Source: Bacteroidales bacterium UBA5515 (GTDB lineage Bacteria; Bacteroidota; Bacteroidia; Bacteroidales; P3). From it: a stretch of DNA of 64,000 nucleotides. The notes below the pieces were generated by a model that saw only the letters and a list, made by a program, of their open reading frames with translations, had not been told where the DNA came from and made no database searches. Within the stretch, counting starts at the first letter, position 1; the number at the start of each line of letters is the position of its first letter. Location: contig DIOL01000035.1 of the NCBI GenBank assembly GCA_002423895.1, positions 2,161-66,160 on the forward strand. The letters are read 5' to 3'. Positions 25,221 to 33,445 of this stretch are shown here, piece after piece. A program made the translations under genes and the position numbers.

Positions 25221-25387
25221 TAAGTTTTTTATAAGGAGTTTGTAGATTTATTCGCCGTTTACGCAGAATTATTCCCTATTTAATTTTAAATAATAAGGAT
25301 TATTTACCAAGAAAGTCTTTTTGATTCTCAAAAAAGACAACCATATTCCATTTAAGAAAAGAAATAAAAATAAATATAAGTTAAGAA

Positions 25388-25472
25388 TTAACACTATTTA
25401 AAAATATTTCCCTACCTTTGAACATTAATAATAAATATAAGTTATTAATGAATAAGTATAGAATTGAAAATC
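25388..25472 (+). repeat. Promoter/leader module P1 (direct repeat of P2)
   Basis: About 85 bp that aligns to 30060-30146. Shared sequence runs ACTATTT..AAAATATTT..CT..TTTGA...AATAATAAATATAAGTTATTAATGAATAAG..GATTG.AAATC. It includes a TAccTTTG -7 box at 25413-25420. Confidence 0.8.
25413..25420 (+). promoter_or_regulatory. -7 box TAccTTTG of the island cassette operon (inside P1)
   Basis: TAnnTTTG consensus, 138 nt upstream of the ATG at 25558. Confidence 0.5.
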
Positions 25473-25485
25473 TTAATAATAATAT

Positions 25486-25539
25486 AGTGCGTGATTACTT
25501 ATCGACTTTGTCGCTTTGCAAAGCAAAGAAATCCCAAAC
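25486..25539 (+). repeat. Inverted repeat R, left copy
   Basis: AGTGCGTGATTACTTATCGACTTTGTCGCTTTGCAAAGCAAAGAAATCCCAAAC matches the reverse complement of 29785-29840 at roughly 85 percent by eye. The core TTTGCAMAGCAAGAAATC also occurs at 26390-26407. Confidence 0.8.
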
Positions 25540-25557
25540 TAAGGAAAATTACCTATC

Positions 25558-26283
25558 ATGAGAAAATATTTAATTTTATTATTGTCATGCTTTTTAATTA
25601 CAGCATGCATTAAATCAAAAGTAGAATTAGAAGATTTAAATACTATTTGTTTTAAAATATCTGAAAGAGCATGTGATAATGCATATAGATATAAAAAATA
25701 TCAAGACAAAGAAGCTCTTGCATTATCTTTTAAACAATGTGATTCTATCATTTATGGCGGATGTGATGTTAATGCAATAGGATCAGCAATACATATAAAG
25801 TTTAATCTATATTTTTGGACTAAACAATACAAACAAGCATTAGATGAAATAGAAAAATTAAGGACCAGAGATGATATTTTTTGGGATGCTAATTTCCCCA
25901 GCTCAACTTATTATAAATTATTAATACAAACATTCTGGGCTAATGATAGAGGAGAAATAGAAGAACGCAACCATTATATAAAACAAAATATTGCTTTTAT
26001 GGATGCTTGCTTTAATGCTTATAATGAGGTTAAATACGCAGATATAAAAAAAAATCTAAAAGAAGTAGATTTAGCAGACGCAGAAATTCATCATGTTAAA
26101 AAAGACTATATGAGTTTAGTTACATATTATTCAATAAAATCATTGCTATATAAAAAAGAAGATCTTTTGGAAGAAATAAAAAATATAAAAGTAGAAAAAC
26201 CTTTAGAGGAATTTTATTCTCTTGAAGATTATATAAAGAAACTAGACACAAATTTGTATTGGAAAGAGGAAAATTTATTTTAA
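25558..26283 (+). CDS. Helical lipoprotein, unknown function (island cassette 1)
   Basis: Lipobox LITAC. The ORF is followed by the conserved inter-cassette repeat X. Confidence 0.6.
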   Translation: MRKYLILLLSCFLITACIKSKVELEDLNTICFKISERACDNAYRYKKYQDKEALALSFKQCDSIIYGGCDVNAIGSAIHIKFNLYFWTKQYKQALDEIEKLRTRDDIFWDANFPSSTYYKLLIQTFWANDRGEIEERNHYIKQNIAFMDACFNAYNEVKYADIKKNLKEVDLADAEIHHVKKDYMSLVTYYSIKSLLYKKEDLLEEIKNIKVEKPLEEFYSLEDYIKKLDTNLYWKEENLF

Positions 26284-26296
26284 GTAGGGTAGTTGG

Positions 26297-26380
26297 TAAT
26301 GTATCAGATTGGGAGCCTTATTTAGTGAAGAGTTAAAAACTAAAAGTTAAAAGTGATAGGAAAACAATGGATTACTAATC
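26297..26380 (+). repeat. Inter-cassette repeat X, copy 1
   Basis: TAATGTATCAGATTGGGAGCCTTATTTAGTGAAGAGTTAAAAACTAAAAGT...GGATTACTAATC, starting 14 nt after the stop of cassette 1. Confidence 0.8.
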
Positions 26381-26488
26381 GGTTTACCGTTTGCACAGCA
26401 AGAAATCATAATAATAAAGAAGTACTGGATTATAAATCGCGCACGACAAAAGTATCAACGTTTTTGCAACTGTCTTGAATAACAGCCT

Positions 26489-27016
26489 ATGAGAACAATA
26501 TTTTTTACATTATTAGTTTTAAGCTTAAATGTTTTCGGTCAATCTGATAAAAAAGATACATTAATAAATTATTGGTTACCTGATTTTGATACATATTCAT
26601 TTGATACCATTATAAATCAGACAAATTATCGAATGAAAACGTATTGTTTAAATGATAGTGCAGTTTATAATGAAACCTTTACTGTAGAGGGAAGTAAATA
26701 TAATAACCTAATTGAATATAGTGTAGCACATAATTTTGCGACTGATTTTACGATTAAAACAGCTAATAATGAGATTAAGTTACATTTAATAAAGGAAAAT
26801 TTTAAGGATAGCTTATCATCTGATTTCTTTAAGATTTGTCACATGTGGAAAAATGAGTTTTCACATGTAGAGAATGGACAGTTAATTTTTCGTGCAACAT
26901 TTGCGAAACCAGATACTGATTATCAATTTGCAATTTTATATTTAATAACAGACAAAGGTGATATTAGAATATTAAAAGTAGAAGATGAATCATTCTATGG
27001 ATTGGGAAATGAATAA
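26489..27016 (+). CDS. Secreted small protein, unknown function (island cassette 2)
   Basis: Signal peptide MRTIFFTLLVLSLNVFGQ. Flanked by Y-type repeats. Confidence 0.55.
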   Translation: MRTIFFTLLVLSLNVFGQSDKKDTLINYWLPDFDTYSFDTIINQTNYRMKTYCLNDSAVYNETFTVEGSKYNNLIEYSVAHNFATDFTIKTANNEIKLHLIKENFKDSLSSDFFKICHMWKNEFSHVENGQLIFRATFAKPDTDYQFAILYLITDKGDIRILKVEDESFYGLGNE

Positions 27017-27081
27017 ATTTCCCGCACTACAGAAGTACTGGATTCTAAATCCAGCACTACGGAACAATAAAATATAAGATT

Positions 27082-27627
27082 ATGAAAAAAATAGCAATAA
27101 TAATATTTTCAATCATTGGTATTTCAGGTTGTTATATGATTTACCCACTTGAGAACGAATCTCGAAATGTTTTTGATTTAGATGATTATACTGAGACAAA
27201 ATACGAAGTATCGTTGCAATTTGGTATAAATAGTTGGATGACTCCTGACGAGAATTATGGTAAATACTCTGATACACTAGATAGATTAAAATATATATTT
27301 AGTATACCTTGTCCAGAACTTCCTTTAGTAAAGCTAAATTCATTTACTTTTACAAGGCAAAAAGACAAGGATACAATCCCAACCATATTTTATGTATGGG
27401 GAGGAAAGGGGGAGACATTATTGATTGATAGCTTGCCTGTTAGTTTTGATAATAAAATAAAAGAAAAGATTCAATCTTTTTCAATTATTGCTGAGAGTAA
27501 TGCTCCATTTCGTGATATAGATAGTGTTTATATAAATTACAATATACAAGTAGGGAAGGATACAATTATAAAAAGTATTTTTTATAAACGAACTCTACGA
27601 AATGGATCAAAGTGGTTAATGTGGTAA
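27082..27627 (+). CDS. Lipoprotein, unknown function (island cassette 3)
   Basis: Lipobox GISGC. Followed by the second copy of repeat X. Confidence 0.55.
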   Translation: MKKIAIIIFSIIGISGCYMIYPLENESRNVFDLDDYTETKYEVSLQFGINSWMTPDENYGKYSDTLDRLKYIFSIPCPELPLVKLNSFTFTRQKDKDTIPTIFYVWGGKGETLLIDSLPVSFDNKIKEKIQSFSIIAESNAPFRDIDSVYINYNIQVGKDTIIKSIFYKRTLRNGSKWLMW

Positions 27628-27632
27628 TTGAT

Positions 27633-27717
27633 TAATGCATCAGAAAAGGAGCCTTATTTAGTGAAGAGTTAAAAACTAAAAGTGAAAAGTGATGGAAAAA
27701 CAACGGATTACAAATCC
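27633..27717 (+). repeat. Inter-cassette repeat X, copy 2
   Basis: TAATGCATCAGAAAAGGAGCCTTATTTAGTGAAGAGTTAAAAACTAAAAGT...GGATTACAAATCC, starting 6 nt after the stop of cassette 3. Confidence 0.8.
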
Positions 27718-27737
27718 TGCAGATGAAAATAGTACTG

Positions 27738-29225
27738 CTATAATAGTTTTTTAATCGCATTTATTGTTTCTATTGTTTTTAGTTTAAGTTCTGGATCTAC
27801 ATTAGCTTGTTCAATCATCATTAGACAACTATCAATCTTCTCTATTGTATCAGCATTTGATAATTTAATCTTCTCGAGTTCAGTACTATTAACAACACTA
27901 ATAGAATTAGTATTCAAATTAATCAACTCTGGAAGTATTTTTAACAATTTCATAGCTTTATTCATTTCAATCAAGGGATTAGTCTTAACTAAAGCATTGA
28001 ATAATGTGAGAGTATTATCTCTATCTTTAAACCTATAATGAACAGAACACTCTCTTAACTGCATATTGTTAATATCATCACTTACTGCTAATTCTTTTAA
28101 CTCTCTTTCAATTTTAACTAATAAATCTGTCAAGTTTTTATCAGTTGAAGATATTAAAATTGAATATATATTTTGTTTCCAGAATGATTTAGATTGTTCA
28201 ATATCTGTATATCCATAAATGTGTTTAAATCCCTCATACACTATGATATTAATACGCCTTAGATTTAATTGTTTTTCAAAGTAATACTCAGAACTTAAAT
28301 ATGCTCTTATTGCACTTGCTAAATCCAAATATATGAAATGGATATGAACACCTAAATAAATTGATTTAACAATAGTTTGAAGTCTTCCCTCAAAAGTTTC
28401 TCCTAACTTAAATTTATCTTGCACAATTTTAGTCTTTTTACAATTTGAGACAATGCTGTCTAAATTATTACTATATAAAGTTATTTGCGCACCAAGTTCA
28501 TTGAATAATTTATTGTTTCCATCAGGGAAATAATTAATCTTTTCCCTTACATCAATATTATAATTATCAGTTGAGTAAATAAGAGGTATTTGAAACTTTA
28601 AGATATACTTATGCAAGAAAGGCAATATGTCTTTTATTATCTTTAAAAAGGCATTTATTCTATTAGTTTCAGTATCTTCTCCTATTTGTATTAAAAAATC
28701 GTAAACTTTTTGAGGATATAAATCATAGTGAATGGAAAGATTTCGAGTATCTTTATCTGTTGATAGTGCATAACTATTCTCAAATTCTTTTGCTTGTTGT
28801 TCTATTTTATTAATATCCGTTAATAATTCTGAATCGTTTATTTCTTTAGCTAATATTTTAAATTTAGCCCATATTGCATTATCCTTATCTTTACCAAAAC
28901 CAAATAAATATTTATAGCCTTCTAACGTTATTACATTTATATATTTTAGATTAAAACGTTTTTCAGGAACTAACATTGTTCTAAAATTTGCCCTTAAAAA
29001 TGTACTTAAATCAAGATCCATAAGCAAAGAAAATACATAAAGTCTTATAAATATTTTCCACAATTTAAATTCTTTTATACATTTATACTCTTTTTCATCT
29101 ATATCTTCTAAGCTTTCTAATGAACTAACACAACTACACAATATAGGTACATATAATGAGAAGTTATTCCCCATATTTTCATATAATCTATGAATTGTTT
29201 CTTCGGATGCTGGTTTCTGTGTCAT
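27738..29225 (-). CDS. Internally duplicated protein with two Rx4H motifs (candidate double-HEPN RNase)
   Basis: Two homologous halves, aa 68-180 and aa 298-410. Each has NL+xINxIxxEGxK...W and ends in an Rx4H-Y motif: TRNLSIHY (R161-H166, nt 28728-28745) and LRECSVHY (R391-H396, nt 28038-28055). Confidence 0.55.
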   Translation of the reverse strand: MTQKPASEETIHRLYENMGNNFSLYVPILCSCVSSLESLEDIDEKEYKCIKEFKLWKIFIRLYVFSLLMDLDLSTFLRANFRTMLVPEKRFNLKYINVITLEGYKYLFGFGKDKDNAIWAKFKILAKEINDSELLTDINKIEQQAKEFENSYALSTDKDTRNLSIHYDLYPQKVYDFLIQIGEDTETNRINAFLKIIKDILPFLHKYILKFQIPLIYSTDNYNIDVREKINYFPDGNNKLFNELGAQITLYSNNLDSIVSNCKKTKIVQDKFKLGETFEGRLQTIVKSIYLGVHIHFIYLDLASAIRAYLSSEYYFEKQLNLRRINIIVYEGFKHIYGYTDIEQSKSFWKQNIYSILISSTDKNLTDLLVKIERELKELAVSDDINNMQLRECSVHYRFKDRDNTLTLFNALVKTNPLIEMNKAMKLLKILPELINLNTNSISVVNSTELEKIKLSNADTIEKIDSCLMMIEQANVDPELKLKTIETINAIKKLL

Positions 29226-29413
29226 TGTAATTATATTGCTTTAATAATTAATTCTATTGAGATAATATTCTATCCTATTTATTGTTTAACCTATTTTCTA
29301 TTCGGTTTTTTATAAGACTTTATAAGGGAGAAAATTGATATGCTTTTTCAATTTTATAGTAAGTGTGGTTTATAAAAGATAATATTAAATGAGAAAAATT
29401 AATTATCTTTTTG

Positions 29414-29421
29414 CAAAGATA
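29414..29421 (-). promoter_or_regulatory. -7 box (TATCTTTG on the minus strand) upstream of the double-Rx4H gene
   Basis: CAAAGATA on the plus strand. It implies a leader of about 180 nt. Confidence 0.4.
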
Positions 29422-29529
29422 AAAATAATAATGATATAATGATCACAAATCTAACATCGTATTCTGCCTCTTTCTATTTTTAACCATCTAAAACAAGCTT
29501 AAAATATGATACCTTATGATATTAAATTT

Positions 29530-29760
29530 AGACTTCTTGTTTTTGAAACGAGACTTCTTCTTTTTACTTTTAGACTTCTTGTTTGTAGTCAATAAGTCTG
29601 ACTTTTGTTATCAAAAAGTCTGACTTATTGGGTTGAAAAGTCTGACTTTTTATATTGAAAAGACTGACTTTTTAGGTAAGAAAGACTGACTTTTTGGGTA
29701 TAATAACTTCTTCTAAAAGTATAATAACTTCTTCTAAATGTAAAATTAGGAAGTTATTGT
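29530..29760. repeat. Phased array D: about 10 units in four sub-families, period 21-22 bp
   Basis: AGACTTCTTGTTT at 29530, 29551 and 29572. AAGTCTGACTT at 29594, 29616 and 29638. AAGACTGACTT at 29660 and 29682. ATAATAACTTCTTCTAAA at 29700 and 29721, with an inverted partner GGAAGTTATT at 29749. Confidence 0.85.
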
Positions 29761-29784
29761 TTGAAATAAACTAATCGTTTTTTT

Positions 29785-29840
29785 GTCGTGTGAGATTTCT
29801 TGCTGTGCAAAGCAATAAAGTCGATAATTAATCATGCACT
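29785..29840 (-). repeat. Inverted repeat R, right copy
   Basis: The reverse complement reads AGTGCATGATTAATTATCGACTTTATTGCTTTGCACAGCAAGAAATCTCACACGAC. Confidence 0.8.
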
Positions 29841-29858
29841 TCTTAATAAAAGCAATAA

Positions 29859-29952
29859 AAAGTTAACCAAGTTAATCAAGTTAATCAAAAATGAAAAGTA
29901 TTTCAGAATAGAAAATACAATACTTTTTAAAACAAGTTAACTTGGTTAACTT
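29859..29952. repeat. Nested palindrome between R(right) and P2
   Basis: Perfect 16-bp arms: AAGTTAACCAAGTTAA at 29860-29875 and TTAACTTGGTTAACTT at 29937-29952. They enclose a 9-bp inner inverted repeat, AAAAGTATT at 29894 and AATACTTTT at 29919. AAGTTAA is also repeated three times with a 9-bp period. Confidence 0.8.
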
Positions 29953-30059
29953 CATTAACTATTTTAAACAAGATTTAAAATGCAGTAATGTTTCAATCTA
30001 ATTTTCCCCCTGCAATTATCTTTTCTTCAATACCTATATAGCTAATATTTTATTGATTA

Positions 30060-30146
30060 ATTAATACTATTTTGAAAATATTTACTTATCTTTGACGAGC
30101 AATAATAAATATAAAGTTATTAATGAATAAGCATTGGATTGCAAAT
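30060..30146 (+). repeat. Promoter/leader module P2 (direct repeat of P1), upstream of the MFS-M20 operon
   Basis: See P1. The -7 box TAtcTTTG lies at 30086-30093. Confidence 0.8.
30086..30093 (+). promoter_or_regulatory. -7 box TAtcTTTG of the MFS-M20 operon (inside P2)
   Basis: TAnnTTTG consensus. Confidence 0.5.
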
Positions 30147-30251
30147 CACGTACAACGTAAAAGCAATGAAATTATTCACGACGTAAATCTAAATTTATTA
30201 AAATAACGATATAGAAAGATACAATAAATAAACAATTAAAAACTAATAATT

Positions 30252-31700
30252 ATGACAAACACAGTTCAGTACAAAGGGAATGACAAACTATTGTTTGGCA
30301 TTATTCTGGGAGTGTTAGCTTTTTGGCTATTTGCTCAAACCACATTAAATATCAATGTGGATATGGCGAAAGATTTAGGTATGGATACTTCGATGATGAA
30401 TATTGCCGTATCTATTACATCGCTGTTTTCTGGAATTTTTATTGTAGTATTTGGTGGGTTGGCTGATAAAATTGGTCGACTTAAAATGATTCGACTTGGT
30501 TTTTATTTCAGCATCATAGGTTCGCTATTGGTAGGGTTAACGCCTGTTGGTGGAGCATCAAGTCCAGTTTTGATTTTGGGAAGAATTTTTCAAGGACTTT
30601 CAGGTGCAGCCATTATGCCGTCAAGTTTAGCACTTGTTAAAGCATACTGGGAAGGAAAAGAACGCCAACGTGCCATTAGTCTTTGGTCAATGGGTTCATG
30701 GGGAGGTTCTGGTTTTGCAGCATTGTTTGGAGGTTTAATGGTTGGAATTGGTTGGAGATATATCTTTTTTACTGCAGTAATTATTTCAGTAATTGGACTA
30801 CTTTTGATTAAAGGGACACCTGAAAGTAAAGCAGAACCAACTGGAAATAAAAAAAGGGATTTTGCAGGTATTATTATTTTTATGTTAGCTATGATTGCAT
30901 TACAAGTTATAGTAACTAAAGGTTCTCAAATTGGATTCGCAAGTCCACTTGGTATTGTTCTAATTGCAGCAACAATTATTTTTGCATTTTTATTTTATAA
31001 AATTGAAAAAGGTAAAGACGGTGCATTTATCGACTTTAAACTGTTTAAAAATATGACTTTTACTGGTGCAACTATATCAAATTTTATGCTGAACGGAACT
31101 GCAGGAATATTGATTGTTTCGCTTGCTTTGTTGCAAATTGGTGGTAATCTTTCAGCACAAGAAGCAGGAATACTAACACTGGGCTATGCTATTTCAATTG
31201 TGGCATTTATTCGTGTAGGTGAAAAGCTGTTGCAACGTTTTGGTTCACGCAAACCAATGATTTGGGGCTCACTAATTGTCAGTGTGGCTATTATTCTGCT
31301 TATGTTCACCAATGTAATGACAGACACTTACAAAATTTTGGCTATGGTGGCTTATACGCTTTTTGGTATTGGCTTGGCTTTCTATGCCACTCCTTCTACT
31401 GATGCAGCACTTTCCAACTTGCCAGCATCACAAGCAGGTGCAGGTGCAGGTATTTATAAAATGGCTTCATCGCTTGGAGCAGCTTTTGGAGTAGCTATCC
31501 CTGCAGGTATATTTACTTCATTACGTGTTGGCGAACATATAACATGGCTTGAAGGTGTTATCACTTTTGTGGGAAGACAAGATAATCTGTCTGTACGTGA
31601 AGGAGCAACCATTGCTTTGGGTGTAAATCTGCTAATGGTTATATTTGCAATTATCATCATTATGATTACTATCCCAAAAACATCGGGAAAAGGTAAATAA
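30252..31700 (+). CDS. MFS transporter, 14-TMS DHA2 (EmrB/QacA-like) type
   Basis: About 14 hydrophobic segments and the GGLADKIGR motif between TM2 and TM3. Confidence 0.85.
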   Translation: MTNTVQYKGNDKLLFGIILGVLAFWLFAQTTLNINVDMAKDLGMDTSMMNIAVSITSLFSGIFIVVFGGLADKIGRLKMIRLGFYFSIIGSLLVGLTPVGGASSPVLILGRIFQGLSGAAIMPSSLALVKAYWEGKERQRAISLWSMGSWGGSGFAALFGGLMVGIGWRYIFFTAVIISVIGLLLIKGTPESKAEPTGNKKRDFAGIIIFMLAMIALQVIVTKGSQIGFASPLGIVLIAATIIFAFLFYKIEKGKDGAFIDFKLFKNMTFTGATISNFMLNGTAGILIVSLALLQIGGNLSAQEAGILTLGYAISIVAFIRVGEKLLQRFGSRKPMIWGSLIVSVAIILLMFTNVMTDTYKILAMVAYTLFGIGLAFYATPSTDAALSNLPASQAGAGAGIYKMASSLGAAFGVAIPAGIFTSLRVGEHITWLEGVITFVGRQDNLSVREGATIALGVNLLMVIFAIIIIMITIPKTSGKGK

Positions 31701-31736
31701 TAAATCACAATTCATTAATTAAAAAGTCGAGAAATT

Positions 31737-32900
31737 ATGAACGATAAATTATTATCAGAAGTTTCTAAACTTCAACCAGAGATGAAAGAATGGATGGATT
31801 TTATGCACCAAAATCCAGAGTTGAATATGGATACCCAAAATACAGCCAAATTTATTGCCGAAAAACTTAAATTGTGGGGTTATGATGTTGTTGAAGGTGT
31901 AGGAGGATCTGGAATTGTGGCATCATTAACCGTTGGGAAAGGAACAAAATCCATAGGACTACGAGCAGACTTTGATGCTTTGCCTATATTTGAAGACAAT
32001 GATTTACCTTATAAGAGCAAGGTAGAAGGTTGGTCGCATCTTTGCGGCCATGATGCACACGCAACAATGCTACTTGGCGCAGCTAAATACATGGCAGATA
32101 ACAAAAACTTTGATGGAACTATACGTTTAATTTTCCAACCAGGAGAAGAAACAATGGAAGGAGCTCCTGCAATGGTTAAAGATGGTCTTTTTGAACGTTT
32201 CCCAATGGATGCAGTTTATGGAATGCATAATATGCCAGGACTGCCTTTAGGGAAATTCTTTTTCCGAGAAGGAGAAACAATGGCGGCAGTTGATAACTGG
32301 GAGATAGAACTCACAGGAAAAGGCAGCCACGGTTCTATGCCTGAATTAAGTATAGACCCTCTGGTTTGTGGAGCGTCGTTGGTAATGGCACTTCAAACTA
32401 TTGTGAGTAGAAATGTATCACCATGGAAAAACTCAGTGGTAAACGTTGGCGCATTCCAATCTGGAATTGCAGGAAACGCTGTACCACAAAAGGCAATATT
32501 AGGATTAAGTATAAGAAATATGGAACCAGAGCTTCGCATAATGGTACTTGATAAAATCCGCATAATAACAAAAGCACAAGCCGAAGCTTTTAATTGTGGT
32601 TATGAAATTCGAGAAGGAGTTGCAGGTGCTGTATTGGTAAATACACCTGAAAACACTCAATGGGCATACAAAGTAGCACAAGATACCTTTGGCGAAGATA
32701 ATGCTGAGTACGGCATGCATCCATATATGGGCAGCGAAGATTTTGCTTTTATGCTTCAAAAGAAAGCAGGAACCTACTGCATGATTGGCAACGGTGATAC
32801 TTTTATGGTACACCATCCAAAATATGTTTTCAATCAAGATTTGCTGAGCCGTGGAGCAACCTATTGGGTAGCCCTTATAGAAAACTACTTAAAAAATTAA
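31737..32900 (+). CDS. M20D-family amidohydrolase (N-acyl-amino-acid / hippurate hydrolase-like)
   Basis: RADFDALP, HLCGHDAH, FQPGEE and SEDFAF motifs. Confidence 0.85.
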   Translation: MNDKLLSEVSKLQPEMKEWMDFMHQNPELNMDTQNTAKFIAEKLKLWGYDVVEGVGGSGIVASLTVGKGTKSIGLRADFDALPIFEDNDLPYKSKVEGWSHLCGHDAHATMLLGAAKYMADNKNFDGTIRLIFQPGEETMEGAPAMVKDGLFERFPMDAVYGMHNMPGLPLGKFFFREGETMAAVDNWEIELTGKGSHGSMPELSIDPLVCGASLVMALQTIVSRNVSPWKNSVVNVGAFQSGIAGNAVPQKAILGLSIRNMEPELRIMVLDKIRIITKAQAEAFNCGYEIREGVAGAVLVNTPENTQWAYKVAQDTFGEDNAEYGMHPYMGSEDFAFMLQKKAGTYCMIGNGDTFMVHHPKYVFNQDLLSRGATYWVALIENYLKN

Positions 32901-32952
32901 ATTAATATTGAATAGGTGTTGGATTATTTATCCTAATTATAGAAACATACTA

Positions 32953-33384
32953 ATGAAATATTTATATGTAATAATATTCTTTTTCCCATTTTTATGCAAC
33001 GCGCAAGATAAAGATTCAGTTACTCTAATTTTAAAGAACAATCAAAAAATAGATTATATACTTAATCCCTTTGTAAATACAATAGGATATGATAATGCTA
33101 AAACTACAATAAATGGAGATACGCTGATATTCAAAACATCATTCTTACTTGACGATACTATACTTTTTGATAATGGAACATTGGGATATAATTTTAGAAA
33201 AAATGTTCAGCCTAAAGAACGTGTGGGAAAAACTATATATATAAATCCATTACCATTTATTAGTAAAATTATTAAAGTTGAAATTAGGGATAATGATAAG
33301 GAGTATATTTACTATTTTAGGCATAAGAGAAAAAAAGTGTACACTTTCTATAAATTAGAAATAAGTAATAGTATTTCAGAATAG
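32953..33384 (+). CDS. Small secreted hypothetical protein
   Basis: The signal peptide MKYLYVIIFFFPFLCNAQ starts at the ATG at 32953. The track start is a TTG at 32908. Confidence 0.5.
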   Translation: MKYLYVIIFFFPFLCNAQDKDSVTLILKNNQKIDYILNPFVNTIGYDNAKTTINGDTLIFKTSFLLDDTILFDNGTLGYNFRKNVQPKERVGKTIYINPLPFISKIIKVEIRDNDKEYIYYFRHKRKKVYTFYKLEISNSISE

Positions 33385-33445
33385 ATTTTCGTTGTGTGGG
33401 ATTATGTATTTCAATATGAGATAAGAAAATGATAAAATATTTCTT

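Follow-up and report, generated by a model that had tools for sequence, protein, structure and literature searches.

PrrC and RloC are HEPN ribonucleases (RNases) that are encoded in or beside restriction–modification (R-M) loci and are restrained until the R-M system is attacked. In ApeA, DARNA/PD-T7-3, and HepS, the HEPN site cuts tRNA anticodon loops after a phage-derived trigger. HEPN domains are defined by an Rx4-6H motif in which N, D, or H directly follows the arginine, and a second conserved acidic residue lies in helix 2, typically in the context E-x3-[K/R] (Anantharaman et al., PMC3710099). Cas13 has been proposed to stem from the fusion of two defense HEPN genes that are close relatives of each other (PMC12165695; Zilberzwige-Tal et al. 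2025, reviewed in PMC12737573). Twelve clusters in the AlphaFold database contain an intramolecular HEPN dimer, two of them being Cas13an; non-CRISPR intramolecular HEPN dimers exist, and AbiD/F are the proposed raw material for such dimers via gene fusion (Yoon et al., PMC12165695). Here we describe a gene on a 64,000-nucleotide stretch of contig DIOL01000035.1 of Bacteroidales bacterium UBA5515 (the whole of which we call the window), which had been put forward from its letters alone as a compact double-HEPN RNase candidate. We consider the chances about even that its 495-residue product stands alone as a pseudo-dimer of two HEPN-type modules within a single chain, has one composite RNase site, and serves as a single-gene defense or abortive-infection nuclease. 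This proposal draws on the internal duplication, the conservation of the Arg/His pairs, a conserved glutamate, single-module relatives, and a defense-like context of relatives, but found no match in hidden Markov model (HMM) or Foldseek searches.

The peptides quoted in the original prediction were found in the translated open reading frame (ORF; Table 1), and the tandem duplication that had been noticed there by eye was borne out by BLASTP and by profile-profile comparison of the two halves with hhalign. BLASTP aligns residues 71–231 with 300–465 (E 8e-13, 26% identity) with the motifs in register; hhalign, using half-profiles built from alignments of 22 loci, returned a probability of 99.5% (E 4e-22) over 200 columns. 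The repeat unit thus comprises ~200–230 residues and extends beyond the segments previously matched by eye. The 495-residue protein is, far beyond chance, a tandem duplication of an all-helical module of this size. An AlphaFold2 model calculated from 42 sequences has a mean predicted local distance difference test score (pLDDT) of 90.5 and a predicted template modeling score of 0.89 and is entirely alpha. The protein displays neither a signal peptide nor a hydrophobic segment, and with 16 arginines and 7 histidines its isoelectric point (pI) is 6.45, which is near neutral. The G+C content (GC) of the gene is 25.5%, compared with 30.2% for the window, and the ratio of nonsynonymous to synonymous substitution rates (dN/dS) relative to an 82%-identical homologue is 0.39, which marks it as a selected gene.

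One R-x4-H motif per half had been claimed, and indeed the protein contains exactly two, at equivalent positions, where 0.22 would be expected from its composition. Their codons were checked in the raw sequence (R161, 28743–28745; H166, 28728–28730; R391, 28053–28055; H396, 28038–28040). All four residues are invariant in 42 homologues with identities down to 28%. Among 174 full-length members, R161 is present in 170, R391 in 157, and H166 and H396 in 173 each. Of these members, 153 have both motifs intact, 16 the first alone, 4 the second alone, and 1 has neither. Lack of conservation of these residues in homologues, named in the original prediction as a finding that would speak against it, was not observed: both pairs are strongly conserved. 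The first motif, which had been assigned to the common RNxxxH form, reads R-[N/D]-x3-H throughout the family (at residue 162, N in 104 and D in 65 members, 169 of 174 together) and is followed by Y or F at residue 167 in 173 of the 174. At residue 392 of the second motif, most members have E, N, H, or Q. The near-invariant E102 is a candidate for the second acidic residue of HEPN domains; at its counterpart in the second half, E331 (28233–28235), a glutamate is found in 113 of the 174 members, and another glutamate of this half, E317, is kept in 168. Among the most divergent members, one (L025:9566-10903) has S-N-x3-H in domain 1 and R-N-x3-K in domain 2, and another (L026:5861-7186) has K-N-x3-H and R-N-x3-H, respectively; judging from these degenerate motifs, one half-site may be dispensable or complemented in some lineages.

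In both halves, the order of the helices and the position of the motif, as given by the predicted secondary structure, match the HEPN definition (PMC3710099). In half 1, helix 50–82 is followed by a second helix carrying E102, an insert, a third helix that is broken shortly before the segment ending in R161…H166, and a kinked following helix; half 2 has the same order, preceded by one additional long helix. With domain 1 modeled alone, the pLDDT of residues 161–170 fell from 84 to 59 and that of residues 151–160 from 78 to 70, a loss of confidence that would be in keeping with stabilization of the region of motif 1 by domain 2. Motif, conservation, and predicted topology together make the HEPN assignment plausible. 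If it is correct, each module would present R-[N/D/E]-x3-H at the distorted end of its third core helix and a glutamate in its second, and the two modules would pack as an intramolecular pseudo-dimer. R161/H166 and R391/H396 would then meet in one composite, metal-independent RNase site leaving 2',3'-cyclic phosphate ends, as happens within one chain in Cas13 or across the subunit interface in homodimeric HEPN toxins. The distance seen between the two histidines in active HEPN dimers is about 8 Å (bioRxiv 10.64898/2026.02.22.705581). Having neither a guide RNA nor a sensor domain or partner gene, the protein would work in the cytoplasm as a single-gene defense or abortive-infection nuclease. 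It would be dormant at first; once infection supplied a cue that opens or assembles its site, it would cut tRNA or mRNA and thereby arrest growth. In this scheme, we infer the HEPN fold, the juxtaposition of the motifs, the RNase activity, the substrate, the trigger, and the defense role.

Table 1. Features of the gene and its surroundings (window positions; helices in residue numbers)
Feature	Position	Strand	Remarks
ORF of 495-aa, ~58-kDa all-helical protein	27738..29225	minus	ATG start; stop codon 27738-27740
Repeat module 1, residues 1-232	28530..29225	minus	from half alignments and AlphaFold2 model
Module 1, predicted helices			8-40, 50-82, 86-108 (with E102), insert 111-129, 132-152, break, 155-165 (with R161...H166), 171-180, kink, 183-210
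Repeat module 2, residues 233-495	27741..28529	minus	from half alignments and AlphaFold2 model
Module 2, predicted helices			236-271, 276-310, 315-336, insert 341-357, 363-381 + 388-395, short hairpin, 405-414 + 417-472, 478-494
Motif 1, R161-N-L-S-I-H166 (then Y167-D168)	28728..28745	minus	end of helix 155-165
Motif 2, R391-E-C-S-V-H396	28038..28055	minus	end of helix 388-395
E102, near-invariant Glu in E-G-Y-K of helix 86-108	28920..28922	minus	in 173/174 members
Conserved 5' region (~180-nt leader and putative promoter)	29226..29463	minus	only flank common to the gene and its closest homologue, L006
Putative promoter	-7 box TATCTTTG 29414-29421; -33 TTTG 29446-29449	minus	conserved in L006
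Tandem arrays, 21-22-nt units	29522..29746		near the gene, upstream of the putative promoter
Strain-variable island (8.1 kb) holding the gene	25306..33438		between Na+/H+ exchanger and TrkH

Several results weigh against this interpretation, most of them from similarity searches. When the protein, its halves, and 89 divergent members were scanned with the HMMs of Pfam, NCBIfam, PADLOC, and PHROGs, no HEPN family was recovered, the only match in these libraries being Cas6 noise at E 0.5–1.8, and sequence searches of the PDB with the single sequence and three profiles gave chance matches only. Foldseek comparisons of the full model with the PDB and BFVD, and of domain 1 with the PDB, found generic helical bundles with template modeling scores below 0.4 and E above 0.1, none of them significant; no Cas13, Abi, RnlA, or other HEPN structure was among the best 50 matches of each search. 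With hhalign, the half-profiles reached probabilities of at most 2.1% against 13 Cas13b segments and at most 0.3% against 11 Cas13an sequences, although the top local alignment with the latter pairs the Rx4H motifs, and no significant score against the two bacterial double-HEPN clusters (Bacillus and Clostridium) of Yoon et al. In addition, 21 of the 174 full-length members lack one or both motifs as aligned, the context of the conserved glutamate is E-x2-K, unlike the typical HEPN E-x3-[K/R], the closer homologues are mostly found among housekeeping genes, and no antitoxin or noncoding RNA (ncRNA) that would control toxicity was found.

How much the similarity searches can reveal was gauged with Cas13b, for which a PspCas13b sequence, used as a probe only, matched PDB entry 8wf8 end to end, and the validated probe then retrieved 120 Cas13b homologues as profile material. 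The two HEPN domains of Cas13b itself scored only 1–3% against each other in hhalign, versus the 99.5% found for the halves of the present family. Foldseek and HMMs also both fail to link Cas13an to other Cas13s (Yoon et al., PMC12165695). Because of this control and this blindness, the negative similarity results carry little weight: they exclude close kinship to catalogued families and cannot reject membership in the HEPN superfamily. A different explanation, to which we give a minor but appreciable share of probability, is a duplicated all-helical protein that is not HEPN at all, in which the conserved Arg, His, and Glu residues form a ligand or nucleotide pocket or the site of another hydrolase and Rx4H arose by convergence. 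It would account for the uniformly negative homology tests, for the divergent glutamate context, and for the pI, whereas many RNA-binding proteins are basic. Against it stands that the full signature is displayed by both halves and conserved down to ~20% identity: R-polar-x3-H at a helix end, an upstream acidic residue carried by the helix before, an insert separating the two, and a next helix that is kinked. The negative tests that speak for it have no demonstrated power. A di-iron four-helix bundle (ExxH) was considered separately and rejected, as no glutamate lies three residues before either histidine.

Our preferred assignment, a pseudo-dimer of two HEPN-type modules, invites comparison with known HEPN systems. 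Cas13an and Cas13e likewise are single chains (429–577 residues) with two Rx4H motifs ~235 residues apart and no large recognition (REC) lobe. The motif positions R127/H132 and R363/H368 of Cas13an2 compare with 161/166 and 391/396 here, and the HEPN1 motif of Cas13an, R-[H/N]-x-L-E-H-Y-[D/E] (R-H-W-L-E-H-Y-D, R-N-Y-L-E-H-Y-E), with R-N-L-S-I-H-Y-D. Cas13an also shares with the present family the lack of a Foldseek or HMM link to other HEPN proteins. The two differ in that no locus of the present family has a CRISPR array, in the negligible hhalign score, and in the occurrence of the present family in Bacteroidota. Since its halves are still recognizably homologous, its duplication would be much younger than that in Cas13an/Cas13e. 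Cas13b, the type VI-B effector of the same phylum, equally has two R-[N/D]-x3-H motifs in one chain, and its HEPN1 motif R-D-L-T-N-H-Y resembles R-D-L-S-F-H-Y of divergent members of the present family. In contrast, Cas13b is ~1100 residues long, has its HEPN domains at the termini with large CRISPR RNA-binding domains between them, and is CRISPR-associated, and no cas genes lie near the present gene.

AbiD/F (Abi_2) type III toxins resemble the present family in being defense-associated HEPN RNases, and the single-module relatives described below parallel their single-domain, homodimeric form; the present family, however, lacks an Abi_2 match in Pfam or PADLOC, the abiF RNA motif, and a conserved upstream ncRNA. 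The likeness to PrrC/RloC lies in divergent members whose genes overlap, or come after, R-M genes of Type ISP and Type IIG and an RloB-like gene. PrrC and RloC, on the other hand, combine an N-terminal ATPase with one HEPN domain and oligomerize, while the present protein has two HEPN-like modules and no detected NTPase domain, and the gene in the window has no R-M neighbor. ApeA, DARNA/PD-T7-3, and HepS are stand-alone defense genes of similar size, but they couple one HEPN domain to a sensor domain and form their sites by homo-oligomerization, and the present protein gave no PADLOC match. The supplement of Yoon et al. contains none of the signature peptides of the present family and no "Bacteroid*" organism. 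Taken with the absence of profile kinship to Cas13an or the two clusters, this suggests that the protein belongs to a separate, undescribed family, as far as the comparison with Cas13an and the clusters of Yoon et al. reaches.

A search of 5.8 billion proteins yielded 74 relatives, all of ~495 residues and without a Pfam domain, the few named ones being hypothetical proteins of Bacteroidota. An exhaustive HMMER search with the family profile gave 342 cluster representatives at E <= 1e-3, and no further distant relatives with Pfam labels emerged from a second word-indexed profile search. A pattern-limited scan of 185,579 species genomes (one genome per species) located 21 loci, in Bacteroidales, Marinilabiliales-type bacteria (Prolixibacter, Saccharicrinis), Aquirufa, Niabella, and Sphingobacterium; one of the scanned-genome loci is a short contig binned as Paceibacterota. 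The distribution of the family across Bacteroidota orders is patchy, and tblastn searches of phage and plasmid collections returned no family match. Being absent from Pfam, NCBIfam, and PADLOC, the family is missed by current defense-finding pipelines. Three loci, in a Bacteroidetes metagenome-assembled genome (MAG; L007), in Aquirufa (Cytophagales; L009), and in a Bacteroidales MAG (L011), share flanking DNA with 79–90% identity, about 700 nt on the upstream and 300 nt on the downstream side of the gene. L007 and L009 have a methyladenine glycosylase gene and an ORF of 92–123 residues upstream in common, and L009 and L011 a short-chain dehydrogenase and an AraC-type regulator downstream; this identity hints that a larger block was recently passed on horizontally, or else that contigs were wrongly binned.

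Among the relatives are single-module proteins of 204–276 residues that contain one whole repeat unit with one R-[D/N]-x3-H; the HMMs of domain 1 and domain 2 give them roughly the same score. The complete genes among them encode 216–263 residues, and the three that we looked up lie whole within their contigs and have no adjacent paralogue. With one half-site per chain and no paralogue nearby, such proteins must self-associate if they are to form a composite site, and the 495-residue protein looks like a fused pseudo-dimer derived from this single-module form. The halves of Cas13 have diverged too far for the fusion step to be studied, whereas the halves described here are still 26% identical and unfused, complete genes survive. 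Should the HEPN fold prove true, the family would offer a natural test system for the transition from a homodimeric RNase to an intramolecular pseudo-dimer, and the anti-phage repertoire of Bacteroidota would gain an unannotated single-gene candidate of compact size (~58 kDa). One single-module relative, P0200 (263 residues; L028:773-6405), is the first gene of an operon that continues with a TerB_C protein, a BrxC/BrxD-type ATPase, and a DEAD-box helicase and that looks like an uncharacterized multigene defense system.

The genes surrounding relatives in the divergent branch bear on a role in defense. One member (L026) has a 4-bp overlap with a Type ISP R-M gene, and another (L016) begins 119 bp after a Type IIG R-M gene. 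In a Rikenellaceae MAG (L015; 1437-4965), a family member follows AbiLi (E 5e-69) and AbiLii/RloB in a tight operon after a 6-bp gap, an arrangement that may represent a variant of AbiL in which a HEPN-like protein is the third component. Further members in this branch lie directly after an HNH endonuclease gene that itself follows a GajB-like (Gabija-type) helicase gene (L025), after a PDC-S01 candidate defense gene (L013), and near a GmrSD/SspE-like gene (L014), and others are found close to integrases. In the closest homologue, L006, a Fic/DOC protein is encoded immediately downstream. Across 24 loci, no conserved neighbor or protein partner was found, and the most recurrent neighbor cluster, a Bacteroides-type tyrosine integrase, occurs at 4 of them. 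This gene association in relatives gives tentative support to a defense role.

We judge it improbable that the protein is no defense toxin but a HEPN-like scaffold or regulator that is catalytically silent, or else a housekeeping factor in RNA processing. An enzymatically inactive HEPN domain has been reported for AbiA; metabolic and transport genes surround the close homologues, no antitoxin or immunity partner accompanies them, and the dN/dS corresponds to ordinary purifying selection. On the other hand, the near-invariance of catalytic-type residues in both halves speaks for chemistry, and the patchy distribution over 21 loci and the lack of the gene-bearing segment in a strain with ~90% identical flanking DNA (see below) argue against a housekeeping task; adjacency to defense genes also recurs in the divergent branch.

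The region upstream of the gene was inspected for regulatory elements and a possible RNA partner. DNA homology with L006 is confined to the gene and the 238 nt directly upstream of it (Table 1). Within this block, a likely promoter can be assigned from the known Bacteroidota consensus, and the position of its -7 box implies a leader of ~180 nt. The original prediction had described a long leader next to a repeat array: tandem arrays do lie in the upstream intergenic gap of 1026 nt, but they are located upstream of the promoter, so that this description has to be corrected. The arrays are absent upstream of 20 other homologues and have no sequence in common with L006, which has unrelated 21-nt repeats at the same upstream distance (~390 nt). 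An Rfam scan gave no match at the gathering threshold or at E <= 10, including the abiF motif (RF03085), and no upstream block conserved across the family was found.

These data also bear on the idea that the protein is controlled or guided by RNA, as a miniature effector resembling Cas13an/Cas13e or as an AbiF-like type III toxin with an ncRNA such as an array transcript. The size and motif spacing match those of Cas13an, AbiF-type HEPN toxins use upstream ncRNA, 21–22-nt tandem repeats occur at similar distances in the window and in the closest relative, and many close homologues have upstream gaps of 280–1000 nt. Nevertheless, we regard such control as very unlikely: CRISPR-like arrays are absent from 28 loci and the window, the abiF motif was not matched, the arrays, located upstream of the putative promoter, have no sequence in common with L006 and are missing at 20 other loci, no family-wide upstream block was found, some close homologues have only 90–140 nt upstream, and profile similarity to Cas13an or Cas13b is lacking. 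For the same reasons (absence at 20 loci, position outside the block common with L006 and upstream of the promoter, no Rfam match), the arrays were rejected as an RNA antitoxin. A bolder variant is a long shot: the family would be an independent, young fusion of two HEPN-type genes that is regulated or guided by an unrecognized ncRNA, for example a transcript of the 21–22-nt arrays, and would represent a second, Bacteroidota-specific route to a Cas13-like RNA-controlled nuclease.

Upstream of the promoter, short tandem repeats crowd positions 29522–29746 and 29860–29960. Among them are a 22-nt unit with the palindrome AAAGTCAGACTTT, present in about 5 copies, the 21-nt unit GTATAATAACTTCTTCTAAAA, present in two, TTAGACTTCTTGTTT repeats, and 9-nt AAGTTAATC / GTTAAC repeats. 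With its period of 21–22 nt, equal to two turns of the helix, the set is more suggestive of iterons or of protein-binding sites in an array than of an RNA.

In the window, the gene is flanked on one side by DapF, a Na+/H+ exchanger, and then three small, unannotated, secreted-looking ORFs, and on the other side by a major facilitator superfamily (MFS) transporter, an M20 peptidase, TrkH, and TrkA. The neighbors are on the opposite strand, as had been stated, and the reported absence of a CRISPR array, cas gene, or obvious antitoxin also holds: no cas gene lies nearby, the homologue loci have no conserved partner, and no repeat-spacer array was found in the 64-kb window or at 28 homologue loci. 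A relative whose flanks are ~90% identical (L032) lacks 25306–33438 and has in its place a different 4.1-kb segment with genes for a LuxR regulator, a hemerythrin, and an FMN-binding protein; in L033, which is more distantly related, 27 bp separate the exchanger gene from that of TrkH. By this comparison, the gene resides in a strain-variable island, and the presence of different genes at the same site in L032 identifies the exchanger–TrkH interval as a hotspot of gene exchange. The description of the island as mobile-looking therefore stands as far as strain variability is concerned, but no integrase, transposase, or other mobility gene was found in it.

The island is a mosaic, with a GC of 25.9% in its left part (the three small secreted-looking ORFs and the candidate gene) and of 35.6% in its right part (MFS transporter, M20 peptidase, and orf158). 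The three small ORFs, the candidate gene, and the tandem arrays lie between the arms of a 41-nt inverted repeat (25486–25526 and 29800–29840, 88% complementary), of which a related 18-nt copy is found at 26390–26407. The repeat may be a promoter/operator element present more than once, a site of inversion, or what is left of a transposon. The sequence GGATTnnAAATC occurs 5 times in the 64 kb, always on the plus strand (26427, 27040, 27705, 30136, and 10749), and the first four of these copies are situated in intergenic leaders of the island. It is part of repeated blocks of ~80 nt, 25397–25472 being similar to 30071–30147 and 26297–26380 to 27633–27716, which suggests a common cis-regulatory element of the plus-strand genes of the island.

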